40,283 bases of DNA from positions 1 through 40,283 of IMG/VR virus record IMGVR_UViG_2909309443_000006, one strand, 5' to 3'. Origin of the DNA: a virus (Duplodnaviria > Heunggongvirae > Uroviricota > Caudoviricetes). Below the pieces are notes generated by a model, which saw only the letters and a list, made by a program, of their open reading frames with translations, had not been told where the DNA came from and ran no database searches. Shown here piece after piece: positions 10,047-40,283 of this stretch. The translations under genes and the position numbers were made by a program. Position 1 is the stretch's first letter; every line of letters starts with the position of its first letter.

Positions 10047-10376
10047 CTATGCCACGACCTGTTCAAAATCTGCCGTTATGGTTACCCACAGCGCCCCCAC
10101 GCTTGCCGACCATTTACGACAAACCACCGTGATCGGCTTCCAGTCATAAGGTGGCGTCCACTGAAATGCGCGGACGCCACCGTGCCGTTCCAGAAAGGCT
10201 TTCAAAGATGGGTGTTCACATTTACGAACACGTATCGTCACGCTGTAAGTCGACAACTGGTTATTCAGTCCCGCCGCACGACGCTGTTCATAACCATCGC
10301 CCAGCTTCACTGTCACCACTTTCGGCTCTGATACCACATTCATATCCGGGCGCACTTTCCAGTGAAACGTCTCCAT
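10047..10376 (-). CDS. M: Minor tail protein M
   Basis: 109 aa lambda M-like ORF; start overlaps the tape-measure stop. Confidence 0.9.
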   Translation of the reverse strand: METFHWKVRPDMNVVSEPKVVTVKLGDGYEQRRAAGLNNQLSTYSVTIRVRKCEHPSLKAFLERHGGVRAFQWTPPYDWKPITVVCRKWSASVGALWVTITADFEQVVA

Positions 10377-14415: not shown

Positions 14416-14428
14416 CCTGAACCAGGAA

Positions 14429-15857
14429 TTATTCTTCGGACTGGTCGTCGGTGTGCTGCGGCTCCTGTCGTTTCGTTGCGGCACTGCTGCCTCCTTTATC
14501 ACTGGCCGGATCGGTATCAAATACCAGATCCAGTTTGCGGTTTTCATCAATTTCGGCCTTGCGCCGACGTTTGACATCATCCGGATTACGACCACCAGCA
14601 CGTACCCAGTCTGATTCTGTCGCCGCTCCACCACGAATCTGGATTTTCCAGGCCTCAGCCTCCTTAACAGGGTCAATCCACGGCATCACCGGTCCGGAAT
14701 ACACCGCGGTATACAGTGAAGAACGGTCAAGATCGCGGGGTAGCCTGATAACACCGGATGCCACAGCCTGTTTCAGCCAGGCACGATACATCGGACGGGT
14801 GACGGCACCAATAAACCAGTCCTGCAGGATCAGGTAGCCATCAGTGGATTCAACCAGCTCCTGACGCTGGGCGCTGTAAGTGCCGTTATAGTTGCGCGCT
14901 GTACTGGAAAAACTCAGACGACTGCCCGCCGCCACGGCACGCAACTGACCATTACGAAAAGTTTCAAGGTTAGGATTGGGGCGATCCGACTTCACCATTC
15001 CGATTTCTTCGCCGGGTTTCAGATCATCGTAAATAATGCCTGGCTGAATGGTAAGCTCGCGTTCCTTATCCTTGCTGCCATTACCATCCGCTTCATAGCT
15101 CTGCCCGTCGCCTTTCCGGATGTACATCCCCAGAGCAGCGGCGATCCTTGCTGCAGTCAGCTCAGAATCTTCATACTCTTTCAGAGCACTGAGGCGGATC
15201 AGCACACCGGACAATAAAGACGTCCCGCGCATCTGGTGCAGACGGCGAACAAATTTAAGATGCAGCATTCGCTCTGCATCCACTTCTTTGGTTTCCATCT
15301 GCCGTCCGGATACGGGACGGCTTTTATACACCAGATATTTTTCGGGACGCCTCCAGCCAGAAATGAACACCGGCAGAAGGCGTCAGGCTGTTTATGCGCC
15401 CGGAAACCATCTGGGCAAACACCTCACCATCGCGCAGCCAGGTACGCAGCATCAGACGTTCCAGCATCGGACGGGTAAACTGCCCGGTGACTTCCGGGCT
15501 GACAGACCATTCACTCCATCGGGTGCGAATCTCCGCAGCCAGATCACGGGCAATGGCCCCATTGCGTAATACCGGATGTGGCTCGACAATAATCCCGTTT
15601 TTCCCCACCACCCGTTCTTCCAGCTTGTCAAATACACCAATGACCAGATCGTGGTTGTTATCAAGGTAACGGGCCTGCTCACGTAACGACACGGCCCCGT
15701 ACTGGCTTAACTGGTCGGCAGTTCGGTTTTCCCGCCGGGCTTTGTGTGTCCGCGTCGTTTTTACGGCCTCATAAGCCTGGATCACCGCCCGGGAACGCAG
15801 CCTTGCCGCTTTCCATCCTGGTGAAAAAACGCCAATCACATCATCAAGAATTGCCAT
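14429..15857 (-). pseudogene. Portal protein, disrupted by a +1 frameshift in an A5 run (plus-strand T-run 15338-15342)
   Basis: Two overlapping ORFs (15324..15929 and 14429..15370) read as one portal if one A is removed; start ATG at 15857 overlaps the upstream stop (TGATG). Confidence 0.75.
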
Positions 15858-16075
15858 CAGAACCTCGCCAGCCGGTACCCGGGATGCCCCCGTCGTCGTG
15901 TAATCAGAGCCGCAAGGCGGCGCTCCCACTCCTGCCGTCCCTGCCGGATCTCAGATAAGTTTTCCATGGTCATCTGCTGACCATTAAAGGTGACGGATTT
16001 TCCGTCCAGCACCGCCATTTCAGCTTCCGTATAACGCTGAATCATGGCTTCGATATCATTCTGGTTCATAACCAT
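15857..16075 (-). CDS. Head-tail joining protein, gpW-like
   Basis: About 70 aa ORF between terminase large subunit and portal, the lambda W position; start may be the ATG at 16069 (ATGA overlap with terminase stop). Confidence 0.55.
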   Translation of the reverse strand: MVMNQNDIEAMIQRYTEAEMAVLDGKSVTFNGQQMTMENLSEIRQGRQEWERRLAALITRRRGHPGYRLARF

Positions 16076-21501: not shown

Positions 21502-21576
<75 letters not shown>

Positions 21577-21579
21577 ATA

Positions 21580-21655
<76 letters not shown>

Positions 21656-21657
21656 AC

Positions 21658-21734
21658 TGGCCCGCCACCGAGGACTCGAACCTCGCACACTCAACTTAAA
21701 GGGTTGACGCTCTTTCCTGATGAACTGGTGACGG
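21658..21734 (-). tRNA. tRNA-like gene with non-canonical anticodon loop (CCUUUAA, C at position 33); possibly degenerate tRNA-Lys
   Basis: 77 nt cloverleaf foldable (acceptor with one G-U, T-stem CGAGG/CCUCG, T-loop UUCGAGU, CCA encoded) but position 8 is C and U33 is replaced by C. Confidence 0.45.
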
Positions 21735-21735
21735 T

Positions 21736-21811
21736 TGGTGGCCCTTGCTGGATTTGAACCAGCGACCTGGCGATTATGAGTCGCTCGCTCTCACCACTGA
21801 GCTAAAGGGCC
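21736..21811 (-). tRNA. tRNA with CAU anticodon, ileX/ileZ-like (tRNA-Ile2; Met not excluded)
   Basis: 76 nt; GGCCCUUUAGCUCAGUGGUGAGAGC...CUCAUAA...GGUUCAAAUCC...CCA; resembles E. coli ileX as remembered. Confidence 0.8.
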
Positions 21812-21860: not shown

Positions 21861-22910
21861 TCAAACGATTAAATCCTGAACTTCCCTGACTGTCTGTTCA
21901 AAACGTCCTGTCTCCAGCTCAACACCAATCGCACAACGCCCCAGTGCCATCGCCGCTTTTACCGTTGAACCTGAACCCATAAAAAAATCTGCAACCAGGT
22001 CTCCCGGACGACTGCTCGCGTTGATTATCTGCTGCAGCATTTCTGCCGGTTTTTCGCACGGATGTTTCCCTGGATAGTACTGCACCGGTTTATGCGTCCA
22101 GACATCGGTGTACGGAACCTGCGCCGTCACACCGAAATACCGCCGCAAATTTTTATATTCACTCAGCAATTCCGTATACTGCCGGTTCAGCTCACTGTAT
22201 GTGCTGACCAGCTGGTGGTGTGGTTTTTCCAGTTCCCCGCGCTGATGTTTTTCTGCCGCAACACGCGCAAACAACGCCTGCAATTTGTTGTAATCACCCT
22301 CGTTCGGTAACTGCCACTGACTGGTACCAAACCAGTGCGAAGCCATGTTTTTCTTTCCGGTGGCTTCCGCTATCTGTTTTGACGTTATTCCCAGTGATTT
22401 ACGCGCATCACGAAAGTAAGAAATCAGCGGGGCCATGACGTGCTGTTTTAGCTCGCGCCCCTGTGCCACATAGCCATCATCTTTCGGGCGATACGGTCCC
22501 TGATAATGTTCTGCAAACAGAATGCGCTCTGTTGCCGGAAAATACGCCCGCAGACTTTCCTTATTGCACCCGTTCCAGCGTCCGGACGGCTTCGCCCAGA
22601 TAATGTGGTTCAGCACATTAAAGCGCTCACGCATCATGATTTCGGTGTCAGATGCCAGGCGATGACCACAGAACAGGTAAAGACTTCCGGCAGGCTTCAG
22701 TACCCGCCAGAACTGCGCCAGACACTGGTCCAGCCATTTCAGGTAATCATCGTCGCCCTCCCACTGGTTATCCCAGCCCTCGGGCTTCACTTTAAAGTAT
22801 GGCGGGTCTGTGACTATCAGATCGACAGAGTTTTCCGGTAAGGTCTGGATAAATTTCAGGCAATCAGCGTTGATTAACTCACAACTGGATATTTTTACAG
22901 TATTAGTCAT
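21861..22910 (-). CDS. Orphan DNA methyltransferase (beta-class N6A/N4C amino-MTase)
   Basis: 349 aa; DPPY motif (LIVTDPPYF) near N-terminus and AdoMet-binding FMGSGST near C-terminus; no adjacent restriction gene. Confidence 0.8.
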   Translation of the reverse strand: MTNTVKISSCELINADCLKFIQTLPENSVDLIVTDPPYFKVKPEGWDNQWEGDDDYLKWLDQCLAQFWRVLKPAGSLYLFCGHRLASDTEIMMRERFNVLNHIIWAKPSGRWNGCNKESLRAYFPATERILFAEHYQGPYRPKDDGYVAQGRELKQHVMAPLISYFRDARKSLGITSKQIAEATGKKNMASHWFGTSQWQLPNEGDYNKLQALFARVAAEKHQRGELEKPHHQLVSTYSELNRQYTELLSEYKNLRRYFGVTAQVPYTDVWTHKPVQYYPGKHPCEKPAEMLQQIINASSRPGDLVADFFMGSGSTVKAAMALGRCAIGVELETGRFEQTVREVQDLIV

Positions 22911-23477: not shown

Positions 23478-24221
23478 CTAATCTGACGTCACACGCACCA
23501 TTATACTTACTAAAGAAAAGTCATCATCAGGTCCGGCTCTCTCTATACGACGCAAAATGCCATTAGAAAACTTCTGACTATTACTCATCGTATTTGATGT
23601 AAATCTGGGGCGTTTTTCCCAAACGTTATGAACCCCATCAGACATGATACACAGATGATATACCCCGTTAATACTAGGTAAATCTTTCCATGTGATAAAA
23701 TCACAGTCGTATTCCATATCAACATTTGAGGCTATAGCCGTCGTTAAGATATTTTTGCCCGGTTTATCCTTCAAATCTCTGGGTTTAAAAATATTCTGAT
23801 CAATTAGCATCTGATGCCTGGTATCGTCCTTCGTCAATTGGTATGCTTTCTTCTCTCCAATGCAATACAAACGACAATCACCAATATGACCAATAATAAT
23901 TCCGCTATCACAAACATAACAAAACGTAAGTGTAGTAGCAGCTTTATCGAACTCATCATTAACATCAGCTAACGACATAACCTTTCGCTTAACTTCATCA
24001 AATACATCCGGAACTGTGTCAAAAGATAAGCTTGTCAATGCTGAAAGTTCAGCAATTGCCATTGATGAAGCCTGACTGGCACCAGTGTATGAACCTACAC
24101 CATCAGCTACGGCAAATAAGATGCCATCCCCTACAATTTTGGGAGGAAGCAATGAATCTTCGTTGACCCTACCTGGTTCTTTTGGATACGAGAATGATGA
24201 AGTCGCTATCAGCTGAATCAT
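23478..24221 (-). CDS. PP2C-family (PPM) Ser/Thr protein phosphatase
   Basis: 247 aa; motifs NEDS, FAVADGVGS, GHIGDCR, MSDGV, acidic C-terminal DDDFSLVSIM; AAGGAG SD; start ATG overlaps kinase stop (ATGA at 24218-24221). Confidence 0.8.
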   Translation of the reverse strand: MIQLIATSSFSYPKEPGRVNEDSLLPPKIVGDGILFAVADGVGSYTGASQASSMAIAELSALTSLSFDTVPDVFDEVKRKVMSLADVNDEFDKAATTLTFCYVCDSGIIIGHIGDCRLYCIGEKKAYQLTKDDTRHQMLIDQNIFKPRDLKDKPGKNILTTAIASNVDMEYDCDFITWKDLPSINGVYHLCIMSDGVHNVWEKRPRFTSNTMSNSQKFSNGILRRIERAGPDDDFSLVSIMVRVTSD

Positions 24222-24982
24222 GACTCACTCCTTAAAAAAGAATGCACAAAATCAAACGCCACATCATCTATTGTCTGATATCTATCATCTTTATCCATCC
24301 TGGTACACTTCGCTATGATAGGCTTTATTTTTTTATCATCTAAATTTAAGTCCTCAATTAACCGCCCCACCGCATAAACATCAGTCTTAACTGAATACTC
24401 GGCATTATATAAAATCTCGGGAGCCATATATCTTGTACTTCCCATACGGGTACCGATCTCGGTCAATTTAGTGGTATCCCCTTCGGGATTTGTATCTTTT
24501 ACCAGACCAAAATCAGACACCTTGTATGTTCCGTCGCTAAATCGCAAGACATTAAATGGTTTTATATCTCTGTGTAAATAGCCTTTCGCATGGATGTGAG
24601 CTACACCATCTAATACCATTTTCACTATTGAAATTTTTTGATCTGTTGTAAGAAGGTTGTTCGTTATTTCGTGCTCAAGATCACATTCTGCTTTATCCAT
24701 AATGAACCATGGATTCTCGGCAAACAAATCGCACAAATAAATAGGAACAATATTGCTATGTACGCAATGTGATTGATACACGACCTCCCTTTTAAAACGC
24801 CTTCTAAACTGCTCTATTTGCGCCAAAAGCTCTGGTTTTTCGGGGGCTAAAACCTTTCTAGCATAATCCCCACATTCACCCTTGTTGAGGTTGTAAACCT
24901 TAACGTGTTCAACAAAGCCAAATGCACCCCTTCCAATCAACTGAATTCGTTTTATAAAGTAATTACCGTGCTGTTCTTCCAT
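24218..24982 (-). CDS. Hanks-type (eukaryotic-like) Ser/Thr protein kinase
   Basis: 254 aa from ATG at 24982; Gly-loop GRGAFGFV, Lys in YARKVL, catalytic loop HRDIKPFN, DFG (VSDFGL), APE (YMAPE). Confidence 0.85.
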   Translation of the reverse strand: MEEQHGNYFIKRIQLIGRGAFGFVEHVKVYNLNKGECGDYARKVLAPEKPELLAQIEQFRRRFKREVVYQSHCVHSNIVPIYLCDLFAENPWFIMDKAECDLEHEITNNLLTTDQKISIVKMVLDGVAHIHAKGYLHRDIKPFNVLRFSDGTYKVSDFGLVKDTNPEGDTTKLTEIGTRMGSTRYMAPEILYNAEYSVKTDVYAVGRLIEDLNLDDKKIKPIIAKCTRMDKDDRYQTIDDVAFDFVHSFLRSES

Positions 24983-25054
24983 TAAGCTCACCGACCTAAA
25001 TTGTAAGAATATCCATATCTTACAACTACAGATAAAAAGGTCCACAGAGTTAAG

Positions 25055-25078
25055 CAAAAAACCCGCATTTAAGCGGGT
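25055..25078 (-). terminator. Intrinsic terminator immediately downstream of the Q-like gene (tR'-like)
   Basis: Hairpin ACCCGC-ATTTAA-GCGGGT followed by T6 on the minus strand, about 50 nt after the Q-like stop. Confidence 0.55.
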
Positions 25079-25143: not shown

Positions 25144-25822
25144 TATCTCGTCGTGAAAAGGTCGCTTTTTGTTGCGATCTCATTTTCACGGTGCAAATCA
25201 AGGATTCTGTATCGAGTTTCTTAAAAATGTCGCACATCTCACGCCAGTAGTTCGCATAATTATGGCTCCAGTTGTCAGGCTTAACTCCACACAGTCTGGC
25301 AAGTTCCTGTCGCTGGTAGACGTCACGCCCAGTAATCCTCCCCCTGACATCCTGCGCCGCCAGCCAGATTAATTTCTTCAGACGCTCAAGCGTTTTCCCT
25401 GTAATTTTTCTGGTGCCAAAATGCACCTGAAACTTATCCCACGCCCATTTCGCAATGACCACCTGATAATCCCAACTCGGATTTTCACTGTATACCCACA
25501 GCACCCACGCCTTCTGATGCTCTTCAAGAGACAGAACGGCGCGTCGCCATGATGATGTCGAAAACTCAACCGGACTGACCAGGGCAATTGATGAACCTTT
25601 CGCCAGCGATTGCTTTCCCGGGATTGGTGGATTATCCCGCGTTATCATTTTTCCAGTCACTTCATCGCGGTACCGGATTTTTTTTCGCCTGTAACGCCCT
25701 GTATCGAACATGGCATTCTCCTGCCAGGCTTCAAGCTGCCCTTTTGTTGATCCACTCAAATCGGCGGTGGCAATCATGAGTTGCTCACGAACAAACTGTA
25801 AATACTGGTTATTCATGCGCAC
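25127..25822 (-). CDS. Putative late-gene antiterminator (Q-like), assigned mainly by position
   Basis: 231 aa ORF directly after rusA and directly before a promoter-like element plus terminator; no motif recognised. Confidence 0.45.
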   Translation of the reverse strand: MRMNNQYLQFVREQLMIATADLSGSTKGQLEAWQENAMFDTGRYRRKKIRYRDEVTGKMITRDNPPIPGKQSLAKGSSIALVSPVEFSTSSWRRAVLSLEEHQKAWVLWVYSENPSWDYQVVIAKWAWDKFQVHFGTRKITGKTLERLKKLIWLAAQDVRGRITGRDVYQRQELARLCGVKPDNWSHNYANYWREMCDIFKKLDTESLICTVKMRSQQKATFSRRDIAKVN

Positions 25823-26172
25823 TCCAGTTCTGTGATTTTTATCCCCAACCGCCCACCAGGAACAAGCTGACCGCGCACAATATTAATTTCATCAAACTGC
25901 TCGTCGTCGATAAGCAACCCCGCATGTGTCAGTGCATCCAGTGGTGCTTTCAGGATATTGTCCAGGTCACGACGACGTTTATCCGGTGGCTCTGCAATCA
26001 CCTTTATCGCCAGCCTTCCGGACAGGTTTAATTTCAGCCGCTGCTGGCGAACAATAAGCGCCACAGCCCGGCGATAACGCTTTCCCTCCTCCGAGATAAA
26101 ATATGTGCTGCCACGGCGTCGCCAGTAAGTGTTCACCGTCGGCGGGTAAGGTAAAACCAAATCTATGAGCAT
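25813..26172 (-). CDS. rusA: Holliday junction resolvase RusA
   Basis: 119 aa; LPYPPTVNTYW, RRRDLDN, VPGGRLGI motifs, RusA-like. Confidence 0.85.
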   Translation of the reverse strand: MLIDLVLPYPPTVNTYWRRRGSTYFISEEGKRYRRAVALIVRQQRLKLNLSGRLAIKVIAEPPDKRRRDLDNILKAPLDALTHAGLLIDDEQFDEINIVRGQLVPGGRLGIKITELECA

Positions 26173-26184
26173 CAGTCACCTCTT

Positions 26185-27306
26185 TTACCCAAGCACGCCA
26201 GTTGCAAAGGCGTGATCAAGAAAACGAAAAATTAAATCAACCTGAGAACCATGCTTTTCTTCGAACGCCAGCGGATCCGCATGAAGCTCGTTGTGATGCC
26301 CCCGACACAGCGGTAGCGTGAAAATATCGTGAGATTTTGTCCCCATTCCGCCCTGACCATGACCAATCAGGTGATGGGGATCGTCGGCTGGCTTACCACA
26401 ACACGCACACGGCTGTGTCTTCACCCAGCGTGTGTATTTCTCGTTAACCCAGCGGCGACGTTTAGGTCGTTTCATGAAAGATTCCGGAGACTCAGGATCA
26501 ACGGCAATGCTGACCACCGTCTTTTCCTGTGGTGGGTTCTGTTGCTGGTGGGCGTGAGGCAGCGGCGCAAGATTTTTTGTGCGCTGCTTCAGCATGCTGG
26601 TGGCGGTCTGCTCTCCCGGCACGATGTCGCTCTCGCGGTATACTGAGCGAATTTTTTCCGCACGTAACCCCAGAGAACGACGTAATGCTGCCTCTGGTAG
26701 CGCGTCCGCCACCTGATTGCAGACCGCCCACCAGGATAATTCAGCCAGCGATAATTCCCGCTCCTGCGTGCCATTCATTGCGTGGCGGATGACATCAATC
26801 ATCCATGCTGACAGGTTTTGGTGAGCAAGCTGCCCGAGTGATTCAGAAGTCTGGTCACGCAGCTGGTTGTCGCAGTACCAGCACAACACCATTGCGCCAG
26901 TACCATAACGGTGAATAACGGTTTCACTGTGATGATAGTCACCATGAGGCCACTGGCAGGATTTAACGTGGCGTAACAGCCAGTCAGACAATGCACCAGC
27001 ACCACCAGCAGCACGAATCACCCGCTCATCGCTGAAAAATGGCAGTAATGATTTATCCTCCGCCAGCGGCTGGCGAACAGCAGGAACGACTCCGGACGGC
27101 AGACCATGCATGCTTTTCGGTTCCGGCTCCACCAGAACTCGAGGGTTATGAAATACCTGCATGGATTCACGGCCCGGTTTTAGCACCACCAGCCCAAGTT
27201 CCGGTACCGGAACAGGTCGAAGTAATACCCGCACGTTACCTCCAGATGCGTTGCTGGAATGTGCGGGACGGACGCGGTGGGCGTTCGGAATAAGGGAGCC
27301 TGACAT
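26185..27306 (-). CDS. DUF968-like nin-region protein with C-terminal HNH-like Cys/His motif
   Basis: 373 aa ORF; C-terminus TQPCACCGKPADDPHHLIGHG...CRGHHNELH; true start uncertain (several in-frame Met). Confidence 0.55.
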   Translation of the reverse strand: MSGSLIPNAHRVRPAHSSNASGGNVRVLLRPVPVPELGLVVLKPGRESMQVFHNPRVLVEPEPKSMHGLPSGVVPAVRQPLAEDKSLLPFFSDERVIRAAGGAGALSDWLLRHVKSCQWPHGDYHHSETVIHRYGTGAMVLCWYCDNQLRDQTSESLGQLAHQNLSAWMIDVIRHAMNGTQERELSLAELSWWAVCNQVADALPEAALRRSLGLRAEKIRSVYRESDIVPGEQTATSMLKQRTKNLAPLPHAHQQQNPPQEKTVVSIAVDPESPESFMKRPKRRRWVNEKYTRWVKTQPCACCGKPADDPHHLIGHGQGGMGTKSHDIFTLPLCRGHHNELHADPLAFEEKHGSQVDLIFRFLDHAFATGVLG

Positions 27307-27623: not shown

Positions 27624-28109
27624 TTAGTTTTGCTGTTCTATTTTAAGCTTGATAGTTTCATACAAAACAATAGTTGCGCCTGTTTTACATAATTCCCGGC
27701 TGTCATACGCGCGAGACCAATAACACAACCAGTTCTCGAGATCTTCTCGAGTATAGGTTTTGCAGGCCAGTCCCTCTGCCATTTCCACGATTTCATCGCC
27801 TGGTGCTGTTAACTCATAGCCATTCAACAACAAGAAGACGTAACCAGCCATCATAGCTGTTCGTTTGTTCGCATTAGCAAACGGATGATTCTGAATCAGA
27901 CTTTCAATCAATACCGATGCCAGTACAAACATGTCATTAGTCTGTTCATACCATCGAACCATGCTGGGACGGGCCTGAGAAGAACTTAAGTTATCTGGAC
28001 TCAGAACACCAACGGGCTCATCTGGCGTCTGTAATTCAATTAGGGAACGATTGATTTCAACAAGATCATCAACCGTAAGGTAATGCACTCCTTCAACAAT
28101 CTCAGCCAT
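27624..28109 (-). CDS. Fic/Doc-family protein (Doc-like toxin)
   Basis: 161 aa from ATG at 28109; motif HPFANANKRTA fits the Doc signature H-x-F-x-(D/N)-(A/G)-N-K-R. Confidence 0.7.
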   Translation of the reverse strand: MAEIVEGVHYLTVDDLVEINRSLIELQTPDEPVGVLSPDNLSSSQARPSMVRWYEQTNDMFVLASVLIESLIQNHPFANANKRTAMMAGYVFLLLNGYELTAPGDEIVEMAEGLACKTYTREDLENWLCYWSRAYDSRELCKTGATIVLYETIKLKIEQQN

Positions 28110-28127
28110 AGAGCACAATACCCATCA

Positions 28128-28522: not shown

Positions 28523-28678
28523 TTACTCCTCAGGTTCGTAAGCTGTGAAGACAGCGACCTCCGTCTGGCCGGTTCGGATTCGTACCTCGCAGAGGTCTTT
28601 CCTCGTTACCAGTGCCGTCACTATGACGGTTAAACAGATGACGATAAGGGCGATTAACATCGCCTTTTGCTGCTTCAT
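28523..28678 (-). CDS. hok: Hok/Gef family type I toxin (HokD/RelF-like)
   Basis: 51 aa MKQQKAMLIALIVICLTVIVTALVTRKDLCEVRIRTGQTEVAVFTAYEPEE; AAGGAG SD. Confidence 0.85.
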   Translation of the reverse strand: MKQQKAMLIALIVICLTVIVTALVTRKDLCEVRIRTGQTEVAVFTAYEPEE

Positions 28679-28735
28679 AGCCTGCTTCTCCTTGCCTTTC
28701 GGCACGTAAGAGGCTAACCTACATTTGTGAGACAT
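28523..28735 (-). CDS. mok: Mok (overlapping reading frame that couples hok translation)
   Basis: 70 aa ORF from ATG at 28735 in frame with and containing hok, as in hok/sok loci. Confidence 0.5.
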   Translation of the reverse strand: MSHKCRLASYVPKGKEKQAMKQQKAMLIALIVICLTVIVTALVTRKDLCEVRIRTGQTEVAVFTAYEPEE

Positions 28736-33281: not shown

Positions 33282-33493
33282 GAATCATTCTTTCCTTCGT
33301 TCGAGGTGCTATCCTGCTTCTTGTAAAGTTCTGGGTTGTATTTCAATTCACCGTTAGTAATTTCATCCAGTTCCATTGCGCGAAGTTTGGGAATAACTGC
33401 TTTCCACCGCACAACAGCCACATGTGAAATTCCAAGAGCCTCAGCTACTAGTCGCTTTTTTTTGAAATAGCGCAGAACATCATCTTTGAACAT
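33278..33493 (-). CDS. Cro/DicC-like small repressor
   Basis: 71 aa, AGGAGAG SD, divergent from the repressor gene across an operator-bearing intergenic region; HTH-like AEALGISHVAVVRWK. Confidence 0.75.
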   Translation of the reverse strand: MFKDDVLRYFKKKRLVAEALGISHVAVVRWKAVIPKLRAMELDEITNGELKYNPELYKKQDSTSNEGKNDS

Positions 33494-33522
33494 AAAACTC
33501 TCCTGTTATTTCGAGCAGGAGG

Positions 33523-33536
33523 GTAACAATAGTTAC
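33523..33536. promoter_or_regulatory. Operator half-site pair GTAAC-N4-GTTAC (OR-type)
   Basis: Inverted repeat gtaacaatagttac in the repressor/cro intergenic region. Confidence 0.5.
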
Positions 33537-33570
33537 ATTACAATGTCAACCATAGCAACATCACTTGGTA

Positions 33571-33584
33571 GTAACATTGGTTAC
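33571..33584. promoter_or_regulatory. Operator half-site pair GTAAC-N4-GTTAC (OR-type), abutting the repressor ATG
   Basis: Inverted repeat gtaacattggttac ending one base before ATG 33585. Confidence 0.5.
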
Positions 33585-34259
33585 ATGAAAAACACTATCA
33601 GCGAACGTATTCGGAATCGTCGAAAAGACGTTGGATTAACCCAACAGCAGGTTGCGAAAGCAATCGGCATATCTCGTGTATCCGTAACAAAATGGGAAAA
33701 TGGCTCTTCAAAACCTGACGGTGAGAATTTGCATCTACTGTCAAAATTGCTTTCCAAATCTCCTGAATGGATTCTTTATGGAAAGGACGGTCACGATAAA
33801 ACCGATGATCTGCGTCTGAATCAGTACCTTTACATTAGTGACAACATCGCCCGGTTGCCCGTTTTAACGTGGGAACAGGCTGGTTATTGGGATATGAGTT
33901 GTCCAGTAACCGAGATTCCTGGTATTAAGAATTGGGTTGATGTCATGACAAAAACCGCTGAAAACTCTTTTTTATTGCATGTTGAGGGAGATGCGATGAC
34001 AAACTCTAACGGCCTCCCAACCATCCCCGACGGATCTACCGTGCTGATCACACCATGCTCAAGTAACATTAGAGAACTGGTGGGAAAAATAATCTTAATC
34101 CAATTGGAAGGAACGCCAAACGTAACACTAAAAAAAGTTGCGATTGACGGACCAAACATCTATCTGTTGTCACTGAATCCGCTTTACAAACCCATCGAAC
34201 TGAATGGTGGTTACACCATTAAAGGTAAAGTTTCACAAATACATCAATACTTAGACTGA
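33585..34259 (+). CDS. CI-like prophage repressor (HTH_XRE + S24/LexA-type peptidase domain)
   Basis: N-terminal HTH (LTQQQVAKAIGISRVSVTKWENG); C-terminal S24 motifs (VEGDAMTNSNG, KKV); start uncertain (ATG 33585 or 33543; ORF track starts at TTG 33486). Confidence 0.8.
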   Translation: MKNTISERIRNRRKDVGLTQQQVAKAIGISRVSVTKWENGSSKPDGENLHLLSKLLSKSPEWILYGKDGHDKTDDLRLNQYLYISDNIARLPVLTWEQAGYWDMSCPVTEIPGIKNWVDVMTKTAENSFLLHVEGDAMTNSNGLPTIPDGSTVLITPCSSNIRELVGKIILIQLEGTPNVTLKKVAIDGPNIYLLSLNPLYKPIELNGGYTIKGKVSQIHQYLD

Positions 34260-34350: not shown

Positions 34351-34541
34351 AACAACATACCAACCCACCCCGCCCCACAGAATGCAGGGCAATACTTCGA
34401 GTTACCAGGCAGTGGTCAGGGGGTAAGTAGCCAGCCCGAGGCGTAAGAACATGACGGCAGGGTTCAACTTTAATAACTATGCAGCAGGTTTTTGTTCCGC
34501 CACCCCGGCGTTAAGGGGAAACAGCACCGCGAGGAATCAGT

Positions 34542-34760
34542 ATGCAGAAACGAGAACCCGTCATCATCGCGCCAGACTATACCGATGATGAACTTTATGA
34601 GTGGATGCGCCAGAAAATTAATGCAGCGCAGGATCTGAAATGGGCCAATGAAGCCAGGGCTAAGCAGGCTGAAAATCTGTCCGCTCTGGAGCAGGATATC
34701 ACCAGGCTGGAAAAAGCAGCGGCATTAAGCATTGCCAGAATGATTACATACCCACGTTAA
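34542..34760 (+). CDS. Hypothetical small protein (first gene of dicB-type operon)
   Basis: 72 aa with GAGGAA SD. Confidence 0.5.
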   Translation: MQKREPVIIAPDYTDDELYEWMRQKINAAQDLKWANEARAKQAENLSALEQDITRLEKAAALSIARMITYPR

Positions 34761-34782
34761 TAGCTAACCAACGAGGCTAATA

Positions 34783-35157
34783 ATGGAATTTAAAGATTTA
34801 CCAATGCAATTCCAGGAAATGGCAGCGAATATAGTTCGTTTCCAACTGGCGACTCTTGACCTGAGTACCGTAGAAAAAGAAACCATCGATACTATATCCG
34901 GTAACGTGCGTCGTGCCTTTATCGGTCTGTACGAAGAGAAGCGGCTCTCTGATAGCCAGGATTTACATGAAAAATACTTCCTGGAATTAATGGATATCAT
35001 TGATAAGGGGTTTGGCTTGTTAATGAAAAAGAAAGGGATTCGGATAGAACCCCTTAAGAACCATTTTACTGAGTGCGGCATTAATCCCAGCGATTTAAAC
35101 CATCCCGCCACAGATGGGAGGGTTACAGTTAGCCATGAAATTTCGATTAATCATTAA
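34783..35157 (+). CDS. Hypothetical protein
   Basis: 124 aa ORF with ATG start, same operon orientation. Confidence 0.5.
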   Translation: MEFKDLPMQFQEMAANIVRFQLATLDLSTVEKETIDTISGNVRRAFIGLYEEKRLSDSQDLHEKYFLELMDIIDKGFGLLMKKKGIRIEPLKNHFTECGINPSDLNHPATDGRVTVSHEISINH

Positions 35158-35368
35158 AATCAATTGCACTTTCAATAAGTGATGCCATCTCATTGCATTT
35201 TGTTGAATTCATCTTACGCAATGAGTCACAAATTTCCGCTGGCTTTGATGACGCAGGCAACTTAGCAGCAAGTAGCATAATTGCCGTTTTTATAGCGGTG
35301 AGATCATCCGCAAGTCCAGCAGGAGAAACATCGTGGTTAAACTGGATATTTACATTTTTACTAGTCAT
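35147..35368 (-). CDS. Hypothetical small protein, antisense to the dicB-type operon
   Basis: 73 aa from ATG at 35368 with strong SD (AGGAGGGTGAA); ORF track extends further upstream without a start. Confidence 0.45.
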   Translation of the reverse strand: MTSKNVNIQFNHDVSPAGLADDLTAIKTAIMLLAAKLPASSKPAEICDSLRKMNSTKCNEMASLIESAIDFND

Positions 35369-35700
35369 TTCACCCTCCTGAGGGTTGGTAATTAAGGGGT
35401 TCTCCACGGGTGAGGTGGAGTGCGTGCGCCGGACACGGGTGAGCATCCGGCACTGACAGTTTACTGAAAGGGCATTTTCCTGAAAAGTCAGGGCATAACG
35501 CGAAAGCGCACGGCGAGGTAGTTGGTTCATAGATAGCCTGTCGTTAAATTTTCGTCGACCGTGCGCTTCCGGTTGTGGCACTCCGCGAAATGGCGCGGCG
35601 GTAAGTATGGCGGGGTTATTCCTCCCCCATTGAGACACCGGGTTGTCAGGTTGACCATGCGCTTAAGTGACAACCCCGCTGCAACGCCCTCTGTTATCAA

Positions 35701-35759
35701 TTTTCTGGTGGCGTTTGGCGGTATCAGTTTTACTCCGTGACTGCTCTGCCGTCCTTTTT
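35701..35759 (+). ncRNA. dicF: DicF-like small RNA (antisense regulator of ftsZ in Qin-type prophages)
   Basis: uuucuggugg cguuuggcgg uaucaguuuu acuccgugac ugcucugccg uccuuuuu, ending in a U-run, about 160 nt upstream of dicB; matches K-12 DicF as remembered. Confidence 0.65.
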
Positions 35760-35764
35760 AAAGT

Positions 35765-35902
35765 GAATTTTGTGATGCGGTGAATGCGGCTAAGCGCACG
35801 CGGAACAGTTAAAACCAAGTTATGGGTGGGGTTCTGTATCCGGCGTTAATTGTTAACTGGTTAACGTCACCTGGAGGCACCAGGCACCGCATCACAAAAT
35901 TC
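35765..35902. repeat. Perfect 18 bp inverted repeat pair (35765-35782 and 35885-35902) bracketing a 102 nt spacer between dicF and dicB
   Basis: GAATTTTGTGATGCGGTG and its exact reverse complement; right arm ends 8 nt before the dicB SD. Confidence 0.8.
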
Positions 35903-35920
35903 ATTGTTGAGGGTGCGATA

Positions 35921-36109
35921 ATGAAAACGTTATTACCAAACGTTAATACGTCTGAAGGTTGTTTTGAAATTGGTGTCAAAATCAGTAACCCAGTATTTAC
36001 TGAAGATGCCATTAATAAGAGAAAACACGAACGGGAGTTATTAAATCAAATATGCATTGTTTCGATGCTGGCCCGTTTACGTCTGATGCAAAAAGGATAC
36101 TGGCAATGA
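35921..36109 (+). CDS. dicB: Cell division inhibitor DicB
   Basis: 62 aa MKTLLPNVNTSEGCFEIGVKISNPVFTEDAINKRKHERELLNQICIVSMLARLRLMQKGYWQ; GAGGGTG SD. Confidence 0.8.
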   Translation: MKTLLPNVNTSEGCFEIGVKISNPVFTEDAINKRKHERELLNQICIVSMLARLRLMQKGYWQ

Positions 36110-36309
36110 ATATCACATTTGCACTTGTTCTGACGGTTTTTCTTGTTTCCGGTGAACCGGTTGACATGGTTACTGGCGTATACGGCTCAATGAAAGAATG
36201 CATGGTTGCCGCAGTGGAGCAGAAAATTCCCGGTAACTGTTATCCGGTCGATAAAGTTATTCACCAGGATAATAACGAAATCCCGGCAGGACTTAAAACA
36301 GCACCGTAA
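36106..36309 (+). CDS. Small protein with N-terminal hydrophobic segment (YdfD-like position)
   Basis: 67 aa; ATG overlaps dicB stop (ATGA); hydrophobic N-terminus ITFALVLTVFLV. Confidence 0.5.
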   Translation: MNITFALVLTVFLVSGEPVDMVTGVYGSMKECMVAAVEQKIPGNCYPVDKVIHQDNNEIPAGLKTAP

Positions 36310-36389
36310 TTAATATCCGGTTTCATTTTTATATGCCAGCAATGGCAGGGATTTGTTCATCCTTAAATCTGTAATGAGGTTAAAACAAA

Positions 36390-38861
36390 ATGAGTAAAGT
36401 CTTTATTTGCGCCGCCATTCCGGACGAACAGGCAATAAAGGAAGAAGGTGCAGTCGCTGTAGCCACTGCCATTGAAGCTGGTGATGAACGTCGCGCCCGC
36501 GCAAAATTTCACTGGCAATTCCTGGAACATTATCCGGCTGCTCAGGACTGCGCTTATAAATTTCTTGTTTGCGAGGATAAACCCGGTATACCCCGCCCTG
36601 CTATCGACTCCTGGGATACCGAATATATGCAGGAAAACCGCTGGGATGAGGAGTCTGCTTCCTTTGTCCCGGTTGAGACTGAATCAGATCCGATGAACGT
36701 CACTTTTGACAAGCTGGCCCCTGAAGTACAGAACGCTGTCATGGTTAAGTTCGACACATGTGAAAATATCACCGTTGATATGGTGATTAGCGCGCAGGAA
36801 TTGTTGCAGGAAGACATGGCAACATTCGACGGACATATCGTTGAAGCGTTGATGAAAATGCCAGAAGTTAACGCCATGTATCCGGAGCTTAAGCTGCATG
36901 CCATCGGGTGGGTTAAGCATAAATGTAAGCCTGGTGCCAAATGGCCCGAAATTCAGGCAGAGATGCGCATCTGGAAAAAACGTCGCGAAGGTGAACGCAA
37001 GGAAACCGGAAAATACACGTCTGTTGTTGATCTCGCCCGCGCCAGAGCCAATCAACAGAACACTGAAAATTCAACAGGAAAAATCAACCCGGCCATTGCT
37101 GCCACTCATCGCGAATACAAGCAGACATGGAAAACACTGGATGATGAACTGGCCTACGCTCTGTGGCCTGGTGACATTGATGCCGGAAACATTGACGGCA
37201 GCATCCATCGCTGGGCAAAAAATGAAGTTATCAACAACGACCGCGAAGACTGGAAGCGTATCTCGGCATCAATGCGCAAACAGCCTGATACCCTTCGCTA
37301 CGACCGCCAGACTATTTTTGGCCTTGTTCGTGAACGTCCGATCGACATTCACAAAGACCCTGTGGCACTGAACAAATACATTACTGAATACCTGACTACA
37401 AAGGGCGTGTTTGAAGATGAAGGAACAAATCAGAGCGCAACTGATACTCTCTCGTCGCCAGTACCAGAAACTGATGCAGTGGAAACGGCAATTCCGGACA
37501 ACGAAAAAACCGAATGCAAAGTGGAAGTCGAACCATCTGTAGAGCGTGAGGGGCCGTTCTACTTCCTCTTCACCGACAAGGATGGCGAAAAATACGGTCG
37601 CGCAAACAAACTTTCTGGTCTGGATAAGGCGCTGGCTGCCGGGGCTACTGAAATCACGAAAGAAGAATATTTCGCCCGCAAAAACAGTACATGCTCAGGT
37701 TCACAACAAAATACTGGTGCATCTGACACGACCGCACAGCCAGAACCGGTAAAAGTTACCGCTGACGAAGTAAACAAAATTATGCAGGCAGCCAATATCA
37801 GCCAGCCTGACGCCGATAAGTTGCTTGCTGCATCACGTGGTGAATTTATTGAAGGGATTAGCGACCCGAATGATCCGAAATGGGTGAAGGGGATTGAAAC
37901 CCGCGATTCTGTGAACCAGAACCAGCAAGAAACGGAACAGAACGACCAGAAAGCGGAACAAAACAGCCCAAATACGCAACAAAACGAGCCAGAAACGAAA
38001 CAACCTGAACCAGTAGCGCAACAGGAACCGGAAAAAGCCTGCACCGCCTGTGGTCAGAGCGGTGGCGGCAACTGCCCTGATTGTGGCGCGGTGATGGGCG
38101 ACGCAACATACCAGGAAACATTCGATGAAGAGAATCAGGTTGAAGTTCAGGAAAACGATCCGGAGGAAATGGAAGGCGCTGAACATCCACACAAGGAGAA
38201 TGCTGGCAGCGCTCAGGACCACGCCAGCGATAATGCAACTGGCGAGGCGGCAGATCACTCAATTAAGGTGAACGGTCATCACGAAATCACATCCACCAGC
38301 AGGACGTGTGGCCATCTAATGATCGACCTCGAAACCATGGGAAAAAATCCTGATGCCCCGATTATCTCAATAGGTGCAATATTTTTCGATCCGCAAACCG
38401 GAGATATGGGACCGGAATTTAGTAAGACTATCGATCTGGAAACTGCTGGCGGAGTCATTGATCGGGACACCATTAAATGGTGGCTGAAGCAATCACGCGA
38501 AGCGCAATCTGCCATTATGACTGATGAAATCCCGTTAGATGATGCTCTGTTACAATTGCGAGAATTTATCGACGAAAACTCCGGTGAGTTTTTTGTTCAG
38601 GTCTGGGGAAATGGAGCCAACTTCGACAACACGATTTTGCGCCGTTCATACGAGCGGCAGGGGATCCCCTGCCCGTGGCGTTACTACAACGATCGCGATG
38701 TACGCACAATCGTTGAGCTGGGGAAAGCCATAGGCTTCGATGCCAGAACGGCTATTCCATTCGAAGGTGAGCGCCATAATGCACTTGATGACGCCCGTTA
38801 CCAGGCAAAATACGTTTCAGCTATCTGGCAAAAACTGATCCCGAGTCAGGCTGATTTTTAA
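36390..38861 (+). CDS. Large prophage exonuclease: C-terminal DnaQ-like DEDDh 3'-5' exonuclease domain, central Zn-ribbon and acidic/Gln-rich linker
   Basis: 823 aa; exo motifs LMIDLETMG, GNGANFDNTIL, HNALDDARYQAKY in the last 190 residues; CTACGQSGGGNCPDCG ribbon; sits in the exo position upstream of xis-int. Confidence 0.7.
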   Translation: MSKVFICAAIPDEQAIKEEGAVAVATAIEAGDERRARAKFHWQFLEHYPAAQDCAYKFLVCEDKPGIPRPAIDSWDTEYMQENRWDEESASFVPVETESDPMNVTFDKLAPEVQNAVMVKFDTCENITVDMVISAQELLQEDMATFDGHIVEALMKMPEVNAMYPELKLHAIGWVKHKCKPGAKWPEIQAEMRIWKKRREGERKETGKYTSVVDLARARANQQNTENSTGKINPAIAATHREYKQTWKTLDDELAYALWPGDIDAGNIDGSIHRWAKNEVINNDREDWKRISASMRKQPDTLRYDRQTIFGLVRERPIDIHKDPVALNKYITEYLTTKGVFEDEGTNQSATDTLSSPVPETDAVETAIPDNEKTECKVEVEPSVEREGPFYFLFTDKDGEKYGRANKLSGLDKALAAGATEITKEEYFARKNSTCSGSQQNTGASDTTAQPEPVKVTADEVNKIMQAANISQPDADKLLAASRGEFIEGISDPNDPKWVKGIETRDSVNQNQQETEQNDQKAEQNSPNTQQNEPETKQPEPVAQQEPEKACTACGQSGGGNCPDCGAVMGDATYQETFDEENQVEVQENDPEEMEGAEHPHKENAGSAQDHASDNATGEAADHSIKVNGHHEITSTSRTCGHLMIDLETMGKNPDAPIISIGAIFFDPQTGDMGPEFSKTIDLETAGGVIDRDTIKWWLKQSREAQSAIMTDEIPLDDALLQLREFIDENSGEFFVQVWGNGANFDNTILRRSYERQGIPCPWRYYNDRDVRTIVELGKAIGFDARTAIPFEGERHNALDDARYQAKYVSAIWQKLIPSQADF

Positions 38862-38925
38862 TGTTCAACCCCGGTCGTCGCCCACCAGCTATAGTGGCGA
38901 CGACCATGATTAGCGAACGACGCTC

Positions 38926-39174
38926 ATGGCAAGACTTATTCTGCTCACTGAGTGGGCAAAAGAGGAATTCAGCGATCCGGTCCCTACTCCGGGCACGTTA
39001 AGTAAATACGCTAAAGCCGGAATGATATTTCCTCTTCCCAAAAAAGTTGGGAGACACTGGCGAGTGGATCCGCGAGCTCGCTTTGTCGGAATGGTAAACA
39101 AGCCGGAGGTGATCGCTACAGATCACCCAGCCTTGAAGAGGATACTGGAAGATGGCGCGCCCGCGAAAATATAA
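38926..39174 (+). CDS. xis: Excisionase (Xis)
   Basis: 82 aa lambda Xis-like; overlaps int start by 23 bp. Confidence 0.75.
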   Translation: MARLILLTEWAKEEFSDPVPTPGTLSKYAKAGMIFPLPKKVGRHWRVDPRARFVGMVNKPEVIATDHPALKRILEDGAPAKI

Positions 39175-40283
39175 AACTGATGTTCCGGGATTATCTCCGT
39201 ATTTTGACAAAAGAAATAACAAAGTTTACTGGCGTTACAGGCATCCCATAACAGGCAAAAATCACGGTCTCGGCAGTATTGACCAGAAACTGGCAGAAAC
39301 TATTGCAGCAGAAGCGAACAGCCGTCTTGCCAGGCAGCAAATGAAACAAATGCTCAGTCTGCAGGAGAAAATTATTAATGATACCGGCGGTTCATCAACC
39401 GTTTCCATTTTTCTGAATAATTACAGAAAAATTCAACAGGAAAGATATGAAAACGGAGAGATCAAACTCAACACGCTGAAACAAAAAGCGGCCCCTCTCA
39501 GGGTATTTGATGAACGTTTTGGCACCAGACCGTTAGATGCCATAACCGTAAAAGATGTGGTATCGGTGCTGGAAGAGTACAAGGCCAGAGGACATAACAG
39601 AATGGGACAAATTTTCAGGAAGGTACTGATCGATGTTTTCCGGGAAGCCCAGCAAACAGGCGATGTTCCGCCAGGCTTTAACCCTGCAGAATCGGCAAAA
39701 AAAACCGCAGGTGCGGATATCAAGGCAGCGACTGACTTTTGATGAGTGGATGATGATTTATAACGCAGCGGAAAAGGATGGTTACTTTTTACAGCGCGGC
39801 ATGCTGCTGGCACTGATGACAGGCCAGCGCCTTTCAGATATTTGCAAAATGCAATTTTCGGATATCCGGGATGGTTATCTTCATGTCGAACAGCAAAAAA
39901 CAGGAACCCGGATTGCCATCCCTCTTGCTCTGCGTTGCAATAAATTAAATCTCACCCTGGATGATGTGGCGTCATCCTGTCGCGATTGCGTTCTTAGTCC
40001 GTGGCTATTGCACCACCATCATGCGAAAGGGACAGCCAAGCGCGGCGGGATGGTTAAGCCAGCAACGTTAACAGTTGCATTTAAAAAAGCGCGGGACTCT
40101 GTAGATTACAACTGGTGCGCTAATGGTACCCCACCCTCTTTCCATGAACAGCGATCATTGTCGGAGCGTTTGTTCAGGGAGCAAGGGATCGACACCCAAA
40201 TTTTGCTTGGCCATTCGAATCAAAAAATGACCGATATTTACAACGATGCACGTGGTAAGGAGTGGAAAAAACTGGTCATTTGA
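39152..40283 (+). pseudogene. int: Tyrosine integrase (lambda Int family), disrupted by a +1 frameshift in an A8 run (39697-39704)
   Basis: ORF 39152..39742 has N-terminal Int domains and ends NPAESAKK...; ORF 39633..40283 continues in the -1 frame with RLTFDEWMMIYNAAE and catalytic-domain motifs (HEQRSLSERL, LLGH, Y); lambda Int alignment spans the junction. Confidence 0.8.

Follow-up and report, generated by a model that had tools for sequence, protein, structure and literature searches.

Within a 40,283-nucleotide stretch of tailed-phage DNA (positions 1 to 40,283 of the IMG/VR record IMGVR_UViG_2909309443_000006; hereafter the window), one gene is a complete and intact orthologue of ydfE, which in Escherichia coli K-12 is a pseudogene (b1577) of the Qin prophage. 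Its 823-amino-acid (aa) product joins a non-catalytic scaffold of the type found in RecE to a C-terminal DEDDh exonuclease domain, and no annealase gene accompanies it. The gene belongs to an already catalogued and extremely common family, and its product is a domain-swap variant of RecE-family proteins with a DexA-type nuclease. What this analysis contributes is the three-way modularity of the scaffold, the rule governing its partners, and the link to K-12 ydfE and to the E. coli exonuclease EcD.

A DEDDh exonuclease at the C terminus

An earlier note on this DNA, made from the letters alone, had picked out three DEDDh motifs near the end of the protein, preceded by a CxxC...CxxC ribbon and a long Gln/Glu-rich linker. 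All of these are present (IDLET at aa 645, GNGANFD at 740 and HNALDDA at 796; ribbon and linker by sequence position and composition). Residues 642-813 are covered by the Pfam model PF16473 (Rv2179c-like 3'-5' exoribonuclease domain), aligned from its position 2 to its last, 177 (E = 9.4e-68; 227.8 bits against a cut-off of 27), and the C-terminal domain also gives a weak match to PF00929 (RNase_T). In a search of PDB sequences, the sole detectable solved proteins were T4 DexA (8KEL; E = 1.6e-6) and its S87A/D90A mutant (8KEN). Foldseek comparison of the AlphaFold2 (AF2) model with the PDB likewise placed DexA 8KEL first, followed by RNase T, Orn, ERI1 and REXO2, all with probability 1.00; 49 matches reached E <= 1e-3, and the top 50 listed were all DEDDh exonucleases. 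The DEDDh fold, on which the note had staked its claim, thus holds on profile and structure search alike.

The five catalytic residues are invariant in an alignment of nine sequences (the window protein, T4 DexA, EcD and six phage homologues), in which D646/E648, D746 and H796/D801 of the window protein line up with D7/E9, D119 and H186/D191 of DexA. The WW..QS motif of DexA is also conserved, and both proteins fall into the same Rv2179c-like subfamily of DEDDh enzymes. By contrast, DexA is a stand-alone protein of 227 aa with 24% identity to the window domain, which forms the C terminus of a far longer scaffold protein. DexA degrades DNA in the 3'-5' direction and takes part in intron homing and in the scavenging of host DNA (PMC12153337), and the same polarity is to be expected of the window domain from its DEDDh family. 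Neither PF12684 nor any other PDDEXK domain was found in the window protein with Pfam, and the nuclease domain of RecE was not matched by BLAST or tblastn. Judged by these matches, its C-terminal nuclease is of a different enzyme class from the 5'-3' PD-(D/E)XK nuclease of RecE.

Kang et al. (2025) described EcD ('HREX'), an E. coli homologue of DexA that cleaves DNA containing 5-hydroxymethylcytosine (5hmC), not unmodified DNA, and that protects against T4 even under leaky expression (PMC12153337). A 189-aa prophage protein (MIDTETLGNGPDAAIF...TTPFLNI; L118:5682-6248, - strand, and also in loci L100, L105, L115, L116 and L121) is consistent with being EcD or a near-identical allele. The published forward primer, which led to the gene, matches it exactly, its 3' end fits the reverse primer bar a 1-nt indel (the exact reverse primer is absent from IMG/VR), and its residue 78 is Ala. 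Identity between this candidate and the window domain is 38-39% (E = 4e-38). It differs in standing alone and in its context, a prophage early operon in which the gene lies two genes from a DNA methyltransferase. The C-terminal tail of that methyltransferase (L118:4468-5445, - strand; residues 292-321) matches positions 256-285 of PHROG 20376, the Cys-ribbon segment that also occurs in the window protein and RecE, which suggests that the ribbon is a mobile mini-module. The 5hmC specificity of EcD is not transferable to the window protein. W152 and D169 of DexA, implicated in recognizing 5hmC, align with Tyr765 and Ala780 (gaps near D169 allow an error of one or two positions); D90 of DexA, a tetramerization residue replaced by Ala78 in EcD, is retained as D718, and S87 aligns with Pro715.

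Stand-alone DEDDh genes of 190 aa, annotated '3'-5' exoribonuclease', are carried by the lambdoid phages E. coli PhiR47_1, Salmonella 118970_sal3 and Yersinia PY54 (gene 51), with 54-60% identity to the window domain (58-60% for PhiR47_1 and 118970_sal3). Next to the gene of 118970_sal3 stands xis, and that of PhiR47_1 is the last exonuclease gene of the cI-proximal early-left string; both share the early-left slot with the window gene and have no adjacent annealase. The DEDDh nuclease is therefore an independent module of that slot, and the window gene, which unlike these genes has a scaffold, looks like such a module fused to the RecE/YdfE scaffold. The ISG20-like 'TONDO' exonucleases described in a 2026 preprint belong to another DEDDh clade.

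A RecE-type scaffold

The note had suggested that the protein may be built on a scaffold like that of RecE but with another catalytic domain, in the position where lambdoid phages carry exo or recE, and both parts of this proposal are supported. The NCBIfam RecE model NF007259 matches aa 235-625 (E = 4e-82; model positions 258-602 of 877) with 276.7 bits against a cut-off of 1269, so the score of a full-length RecE equivalog is not reached. BLASTP aligns aa 474-621, the acidic linker and Cys4 ribbon, with residues 471-611 of Rac-SA53 RecE at 76% identity, and the DNA is 82% identical to Rac-SA53 recE over window positions 37809-38256. When an alignment of 25 scaffold sequences was compared with RecE, including its N-terminal region, hhalign returned a probability of 100% (E = 8e-65) and a colinear match of window aa 8-549 with RecE 36-539. 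The second domain (D2; Table 1) is the clearest block in this match; for the first domain (D1), the correspondence with RecE is less certain than for D2 and the linker, because some alignment rows carry RecE-type N-termini.

Rac-SA53 RecE is a protein of 1048 aa with PF06630 at its N terminus and PF12684 (PDDEXK) at its C terminus, and recT is the next gene. Synteny with Rac (kilR...recE-recT...xis-int) places the window gene in the recE slot, at the end of the early-left operon and before xis/int. Beyond the common slot and scaffold, the two differ in several respects: RecE carries a 5'-3' double-stranded DNA (dsDNA) exonuclease of the PD-(D/E)XK type where the window protein has its predicted 3'-5' DEDDh exonuclease (PF16473), its N terminus is of the PF06630 rather than the YdfE_N type, it lacks the third domain (D3), and it is followed by recT, whereas no such gene follows here. 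The nuclease of RecE is confined to residues 564-866, and the N-terminal ~560 residues are dispensable for basic recombineering, yet boost linear-linear recombination (PMC11611040).

The AF2 model of the whole protein (mean predicted local distance difference test score (pLDDT) 67) consists of four folded units separated by long linkers with pLDDT <50: D1 (aa 1-205, ~90), D2 (240-343, ~90), D3 (386-435, ~85) and the DEDDh domain (641-820, mixed, 50-90). This beads-on-a-string layout fits a tethered effector. The scaffold families are known from precomputed Pfam matches (PF27430, YdfE_N; PF27432, YdfE_C; together with PF16473) to cluster representatives that have 90-98% identity with the window protein; the YdfE_N/YdfE_C assignment thus rests on near-identical proteins, for which the matches are given without coordinates. 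D1 probably corresponds to YdfE_N, judging by the co-variation of domains among relatives and by PF27430 on 98%-identical cluster representatives. PHROG 5943 matches residues 1-257, and in some relatives D1 is exchanged for the RecE N-terminal domain PF06630. D2, probably YdfE_C, is common to authentic RecE (hhalign to RecE aa ~279-378; BLASTP over 262-336, E = 3e-4), and PF27432 is found on PD-(D/E)XK, DEDDh and Rad52-type relatives alike. D3 bears the motif 'GPFYF..GRANK..EIT.EEY.ARK', kept in the alignment consensus of YdfE-type relatives; hhalign shows a gap at this place in Rac RecE. Beyond the exonuclease families, the whole protein gave no more matches in a local Pfam copy without the PF27430 and PF27432 models.

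Between D3 and the nuclease, the acidic tract at aa ~505-600 contains 25-33% Q+E per 40-aa block and lies in a region mostly predicted to be disordered (pLDDT <50). Going by sequence identity, the linker segment aa 474-622 is the part closest to true RecE and forms the 3' recombination boundary of the mosaic. All four Cys of the embedded ribbon are kept in RecE (BLASTP); metal binding there is putative, and the AF2 model has low confidence at the ribbon.

Relation to K-12 ydfE

The window protein is 100% identical to RefSeq WP_001763171.1, labeled '3'-5' exonuclease', and the PHROG 2082 profile covers residues 1-823 of 823. Copies of the gene are labeled 'exonuclease' or '3'-5' exonuclease' in RefSeq, and many NCBI copies '3'-5' exoribonuclease'. 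Over aa 1-255, it is 96% identical to the K-12 ydfE sequence upstream of IS2E, and the operon order of Qin (dicA, ydfABC, dicF, dicB, ydfD, ydfE, intQ) is the same as that of the window, including the run dicF-dicB-ydfD-ydfE-int, so that the two genes are orthologous. The K-12 gene differs in being interrupted by IS2E, and its truncated product is without the linker, ribbon and exonuclease domain. The full architecture has probably gone unnoticed from the reference strain because its copy is cut by IS2E, a truncated pseudogene that gives no hint of what follows, and YdfE was probably overlooked for the same reason. No study of YdfE was found in the literature, and nothing on the window protein under the terms RecE and DEDDh or Rv2179c and phage.

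Absence of an annealase

The note had seen no RecT/Bet/Erf-like gene between the dicB operon and xis, and this absence extends to the whole window. Among its 52 non-overlapping open reading frames (ORFs) of >=60 aa, none of the 51 others matched a PHROG of the RecT, Redbeta, Erf, Sak, Sak4, Rad52 or Gp2.5 type, and the RefSeq annotation of identical and near-identical records contains no annealase. Searches by tblastn with two RecT proteins and a Rad52-like domain gave no match in three near-identical loci, L001 (99.9% identical over window positions 34363-40283 and 100% across the gene) and the phage loci L002 and L005. Two possible hiding places for an annealase were thereby rejected: elsewhere in the window, by the PHROG scan, the RefSeq annotation and tblastn, and within the 823-aa protein itself, where the Rad52-like domain of its siblings (below) found no match in L001, L002 or L005 and Pfam and PHROGs returned no single-strand annealing protein (SSAP). 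Besides xis and the integrase, the DNA-recombining or DNA-cutting functions of the window are a RusA resolvase (25813..26172, - strand) and a DUF968/HNH protein (26185..27306, - strand).

Two-component recombinases are recognized by an adjacent SSAP and an exonuclease of a 5'-3' dsDNA family; the window gene has neither, the latter judged by its expected polarity. A 3'-5' nuclease cannot stand in for RecE because it removes the 3' tails that annealases need; indeed, deletion of ExoI, the host 3'-5' single-stranded DNA exonuclease, raises RecET/Red assembly 65-70-fold (PMC13048471). The window protein is most likely not half of an exonuclease-annealase pair of the RecET/Red type.

One scaffold, three C-terminal modules

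An exhaustive search with residues 1-630 against 1.84 billion representatives (clustered at 50% identity) returned only 252 relatives, 48 of them >=450 aa long; a full-length search of a 5.8-billion-protein database and a scaffold scan of IMG/VR added only near-identical E. coli copies. Among the 48 long relatives, YdfE-type and RecE-type N-termini occur in all combinations with DEDDh and PD-(D/E)XK domains. The YdfE-type N-terminus is joined to DEDDh in the window protein, P0121 and P0122 and to PD-(D/E)XK in P0132, P0205 and P0226; the RecE-type N-terminus is joined to DEDDh in P0128, P0141, P0239 and a protein of phage vB_EcoS-689R5, and to PD-(D/E)XK in true RecE and others.

A C-terminal domain of a third kind, ~300 aa long and labeled just 'exonuclease' in PHROGs, is common to 13 further representatives. 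It is probably an annealase domain of the Rad52/Rad22 family. PF04098 (Rad52_Rad22) was the sole consistent Pfam family, present in six of seven members, although below threshold (best E = 0.003), and hhalign against residues 1-212 of human RAD52 (sequence checked against 1KN0) gave a colinear core at E = 0.019 and a probability of 2.5%. A profile search with the domain reached stand-alone homologues of ~243 aa (E ~ 1e-62) that are named 'Rad52/Rad22 family DNA repair protein' in NCBI and UniRef and, in one case, 'RAD52 pathway protein' by JGI; two of them carry precomputed PF04098. These probable scaffold-Rad52 fusions (P0129, P0133, P0137, P0154, P0164, P0183 and others; loci L090:5650-7986 and L097:5001-7148) share with the window protein the YdfE_N/YdfE_C scaffold, D3 and the slot before xis/int (PHROG 2489; P0129, P0183). 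They differ in ending in the annealase-like domain instead of a nuclease and in being followed by a Sipho_Gp157 gene, then xis/int; a Gam-like gene precedes one of them. The label 'exonuclease' of PHROG 2489 and 7838 for these proteins looks like a mis-transferred annotation.

The C-terminal module goes together with the neighboring gene. PD-(D/E)XK versions have RecT next to them in three of three contexts examined (Rac, P0205 and P0132), while DEDDh versions lead straight into xis/int or int in all those examined (the window, TW10690, mEp460, vB_EcoS-689R5, P0122 and two P0141 contigs). RecT, PD-(D/E)XK and the RecE N-terminal domain were absent from 80 of 80 IMG/VR loci.

Prevalence and selection

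Matches to the window gene were found in 4801 of 5426 complete E. coli genomes, with a copy covering >=80% of the gene in 3533, and the number of matching places per genome has a median of 2 and a maximum of 10. The gene also occurs in viable, plaque-forming lambdoid phages (mEp460, Tritos, Evi, HannyBb and PhiR42_1) and in 'PPompW' prophages of enterohemorrhagic E. coli (EHEC). An ORF of >=809 aa is present in 73 of 80 related loci. Mean ratios of non-synonymous to synonymous substitution (dN/dS) against the window, which are pairwise means and not phylogenetically independent, are 0.15 for D1, 0.20 for aa 245-470 (D2 and D3), 0.32 for the linker and ribbon, and 0.17 for the DEDDh domain. By this measure, all modules are under purifying selection, and the gene is maintained although the window prophage is defective.

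Possible functions

The dicB operon context described in the note is real: DicF (identified with Rfam), dicB and ydfD lie upstream and xis directly downstream. According to a 2023 study, the dicBF transcript of K-12 comprises ydfABC-dicF-dicB-ydfDE and is expressed from a PL-like promoter repressed by DicA (PMC10448788). No convincing promoter or terminator was seen between ydfD and 36390 in the window, and cotranscription with dicF-dicB-ydfD from a repressor-controlled PL-like promoter is most likely, in which case the protein would be made upon induction or derepression. The gene would then supply a modular early protein of a lambdoid prophage of the Qin/PPompW/mEp460 type, composed of a scaffold of ~620 residues and an exonuclease of ~180 residues. 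We propose that the scaffold positions the enzyme on a partner or substrate and that the DEDDh domain, tethered to it by the acidic and presumably flexible linker, would remove 3'-end nucleotides by two-metal (Mg2+) hydrolysis involving D646, E648, D746 and D801, with H796 as general base; strand exchange and resolution would be left to host RecA/RecBCD and phage RusA.

By analogy with DexA, the most likely job of the protein, to which we give about an even chance, would be the trimming or degradation of 3' DNA ends in phage DNA metabolism. More tentatively, the N-terminal ~600 residues of RecE and YdfE may be a portable recombination hub, with the DEDDh version serving an unrecognized, annealase-independent phage pathway. 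If so, the DEDDh domain might remove 3' tails and thereby steer broken ends from competing annealing and RecA pathways; alternatively, a DexA-like nuclease might be delivered to the ends of invading DNA.

Several observations weigh against 3'-end processing by a scaffold-delivered enzyme in the phage's own DNA metabolism. Profile searches of D1, D2 and D3 against PDB sequences gave only noise, and delivery by the scaffold is a conjecture because these domains are without sequence relatives among solved structures. From the operon, only DicF, DicB and YdfD have been characterized (PMC10448788). The domain is named exoribonuclease after Rv2179c in Pfam and NCBI, and RNA may be a substrate. Furthermore, the gene is intact in a clearly defective prophage, which a benefit to the host would explain no less well than a function in the lytic cycle of the phage, and EcD, the closest experimentally tested bacterial homologue, is a defense nuclease.

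These last points lead to a DexA/EcD-like (HREX) anti-phage or superinfection-exclusion nuclease, which would degrade incoming, possibly base-modified phage DNA from its 3' ends, targeted to DNA ends by the scaffold. We consider this main rival plausible but rather unlikely. A benefit to the lysogen would explain survival in decaying prophages, and the ORF is intact and under purifying selection even though the portal gene is split, head-tail genes have been deleted and int is broken. DexA ranks first among the structural matches, and the relationship to the T4-restricting, 5hmC-DNA-degrading EcD (PMC12153337) is described above. Its operon neighbor DicB gives E. coli protection against phages (PMC6832061), and some cells of a population activate dicBp spontaneously (PMC10448788). 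Against this reading, the 5hmC-recognition residues W152 and D169 are not kept, while D90 is, EcD is stand-alone and sits in a different context beside a DNA methyltransferase, and the window gene belongs to a repressed lytic operon and takes the same position in viable phages. PADLOC 2.0 gave no match to the window protein, and membership in a known defense system is therefore not supported.

That the enzyme instead serves recombination in the manner of RecE, though with the opposite polarity, and draws on an annealase encoded elsewhere (RecT- or Rad52-like, from another prophage) seems improbable. The recE slot, the RecE scaffold and the siblings in which the same scaffold carries a Rad52-family annealase, making it a component of recombination modules, would all suit such a role, as would the several matching places per E. 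coli genome. Many E. coli genomes hold several lambdoid prophages. Yet an annealase was linked in none of the ~90 loci examined, exonucleases and annealases that work as pairs are as a rule encoded together and recognize each other specifically (PMC11611040, PMC13048471), and SSAP pathways require the 3' tails that a 3'-5' exonuclease destroys, consistent with the gain in yield on removal of ExoI (PMC13048471).

Doubtful to a similar degree is a Rv2179c-like 3'-5' exoribonuclease that acts on transcripts after induction (host mRNAs or small RNAs), or on oligonucleotides or signaling nucleotides as an anti-defense activity. The Pfam family takes its name from the M. tuberculosis exoribonuclease Rv2179c, as do the labels of many NCBI copies ('3'-5' exoribonuclease'), the structural neighbors RNase T, Orn, REXO2 and ERI1 are RNases or oligonucleotidases, and the operon also encodes the small RNA DicF; however, the best solved match in both sequence and structure is a DNA exonuclease, the scaffold is otherwise joined only to DNA-recombination modules, and the window protein is without an RNA-binding domain.

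A decaying, functionless recE remnant of a cryptic prophage, as the IS2E-cut K-12 pseudogene and the defective state of the window prophage might suggest, is very improbable and is already contradicted by the 2.5-kb intact ORF, full-length copies in 73 of 80 loci and near-complete copies (>=80%) in 3533 genomes, dN/dS of 0.15-0.32 across modules, presence in plaque-forming phages and conservation of all catalytic residues.

Genomic context

The coordinates of the gene, its domains and its neighbors are collected in Table 1; no gene lies between the exonuclease gene and xis.

Table 1. Features of the ydfE gene, its product and the surrounding operon (window coordinates).
Feature	Position	Strand	Residues	Basis or remark
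ydfC	34542..34760	+		RefSeq annotation, identical DNA
124-aa ORF	34783..35157	+		RefSeq annotation, identical DNA
DicF small RNA	35703..35754	+		Rfam, 70.8 bits
dicB	35921..36109	+		RefSeq annotation
ydfD/DUF1482	36106..36309	+		RefSeq annotation
GAGG, Shine-Dalgarno-like	36376..36379	+		Sequence read; 10 nt upstream of ATG
Intact ydfE orthologue, scaffold + DEDDh exonuclease	36390..38861	+	1-823	Complete gene, ATG start
D1, alpha/beta + helical N-terminal domain	36390..37004	+	1-205	AF2 pLDDT ~90; probable YdfE_N
D2, all-alpha scaffold core	37107..37418	+	240-343	AF2 pLDDT ~90; probable YdfE_C
D3, small beta-hairpin/helix unit	37545..37694	+	386-435	AF2 pLDDT 81-87
Acidic Q/E-rich linker with embedded Cys4 ribbon	37809..38255	+	474-622	BLASTP, DNA identity, composition
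CxxC-x7-CxxC, putative zinc ribbon or knuckle	38040..38084	+	C551/C554/C562/C565	Positions 551-554, 562-565
DEDDh 3'-5' exonuclease domain (predicted polarity), Rv2179c/DexA type	38313..38828	+	642-813	PF16473
Catalytic residue	38325-38327	+	D646	Alignment with DexA
Catalytic residue	38331-38333	+	E648	Alignment with DexA
Catalytic residue	38625-38627	+	D746	Alignment with DexA
Catalytic residue	38775-38777	+	H796	Alignment with DexA
Catalytic residue	38790-38792	+	D801	Alignment with DexA
xis	38926..39174	+		RefSeq annotation
Integrase	39152..40283	+		Disrupted by one extra A at ~39697

The window is a prophage of the PPompW type, inserted at ompW, and looks defective. Its portal gene is split into two frames (15324..15929 and 14429..15370, - strand), and a protease/capsid ORF (12787..14676, -) abuts the tape-measure ORF (10376..12820, -); the latter begins at position 224 of the 1151 of its PHROG profile, which implies that the head-tail and major-tail genes have been deleted. 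The extra A in the integrase (A8 versus A7 in a poly-A run) is either a real frameshift or a homopolymer sequencing error.

The repressor (33486..34259, +) is CI-like, of the LexA/S24 type with ~238 aa, and should be cleavable, whereas those of the otherwise 99.9%-identical TW10690 prophage and of K-12 Qin are short and of the DicA type (~135-140 aa). This points to an exchange of the immunity region that left the dicBF-ydfE operon as it was. An antisense ORF (35147..35638, -) lies between the 124-aa ORF and dicF, opposite the region just upstream of DicF; a 73-aa hypothetical protein annotated there by RefSeq (35147..35368, -) matches PHROG 7249.

Outside the early-left operon, a Ser/Thr protein kinase (24218..25057, -) and a PP2C phosphatase (23478..24221, -) adjoin as a pair, and a DNA methyltransferase (21861..22910, -) is located between the Q antiterminator and the lysis genes; together, these look like a moron or defense-like cassette. 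Three tRNA genes (21505..21811, -), assigned to Gly, Lys and Ile according to the homologous RefSeq record, lie a short way upstream of the methyltransferase gene, within the region that regulates the late genes. The early-right region encodes a Doc-like toxin (27624..28118, -) and a toxin of the hokD/mokW type (28523..28735, -) with the sok antisense RNA (RF01794; 28673..28848; 121.6 bits).

Implications

These findings do not overturn known biology, and if YdfE is merely an accessory for DNA scavenging or end trimming, the gain would mainly be better annotation of a very common gene. The DEDDh version is, at any rate, among the most widespread prophage genes of E. coli, and given its T4-restricting stand-alone relative EcD, the scaffolded form could matter for phage resistance, for phage therapy and possibly for tools that process 3' ends. 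For decades, the function of the N-terminal ~560 residues of RecE has been a question. This region now emerges as a conserved, selected and portable scaffold that carries three alternative C-terminal recombination modules, and, being portable, it opens its own function to experiments that use domain swaps and look for common binding partners. Identifying the binding partner of the scaffold would also explain the dispensable N-terminal domain of RecE.

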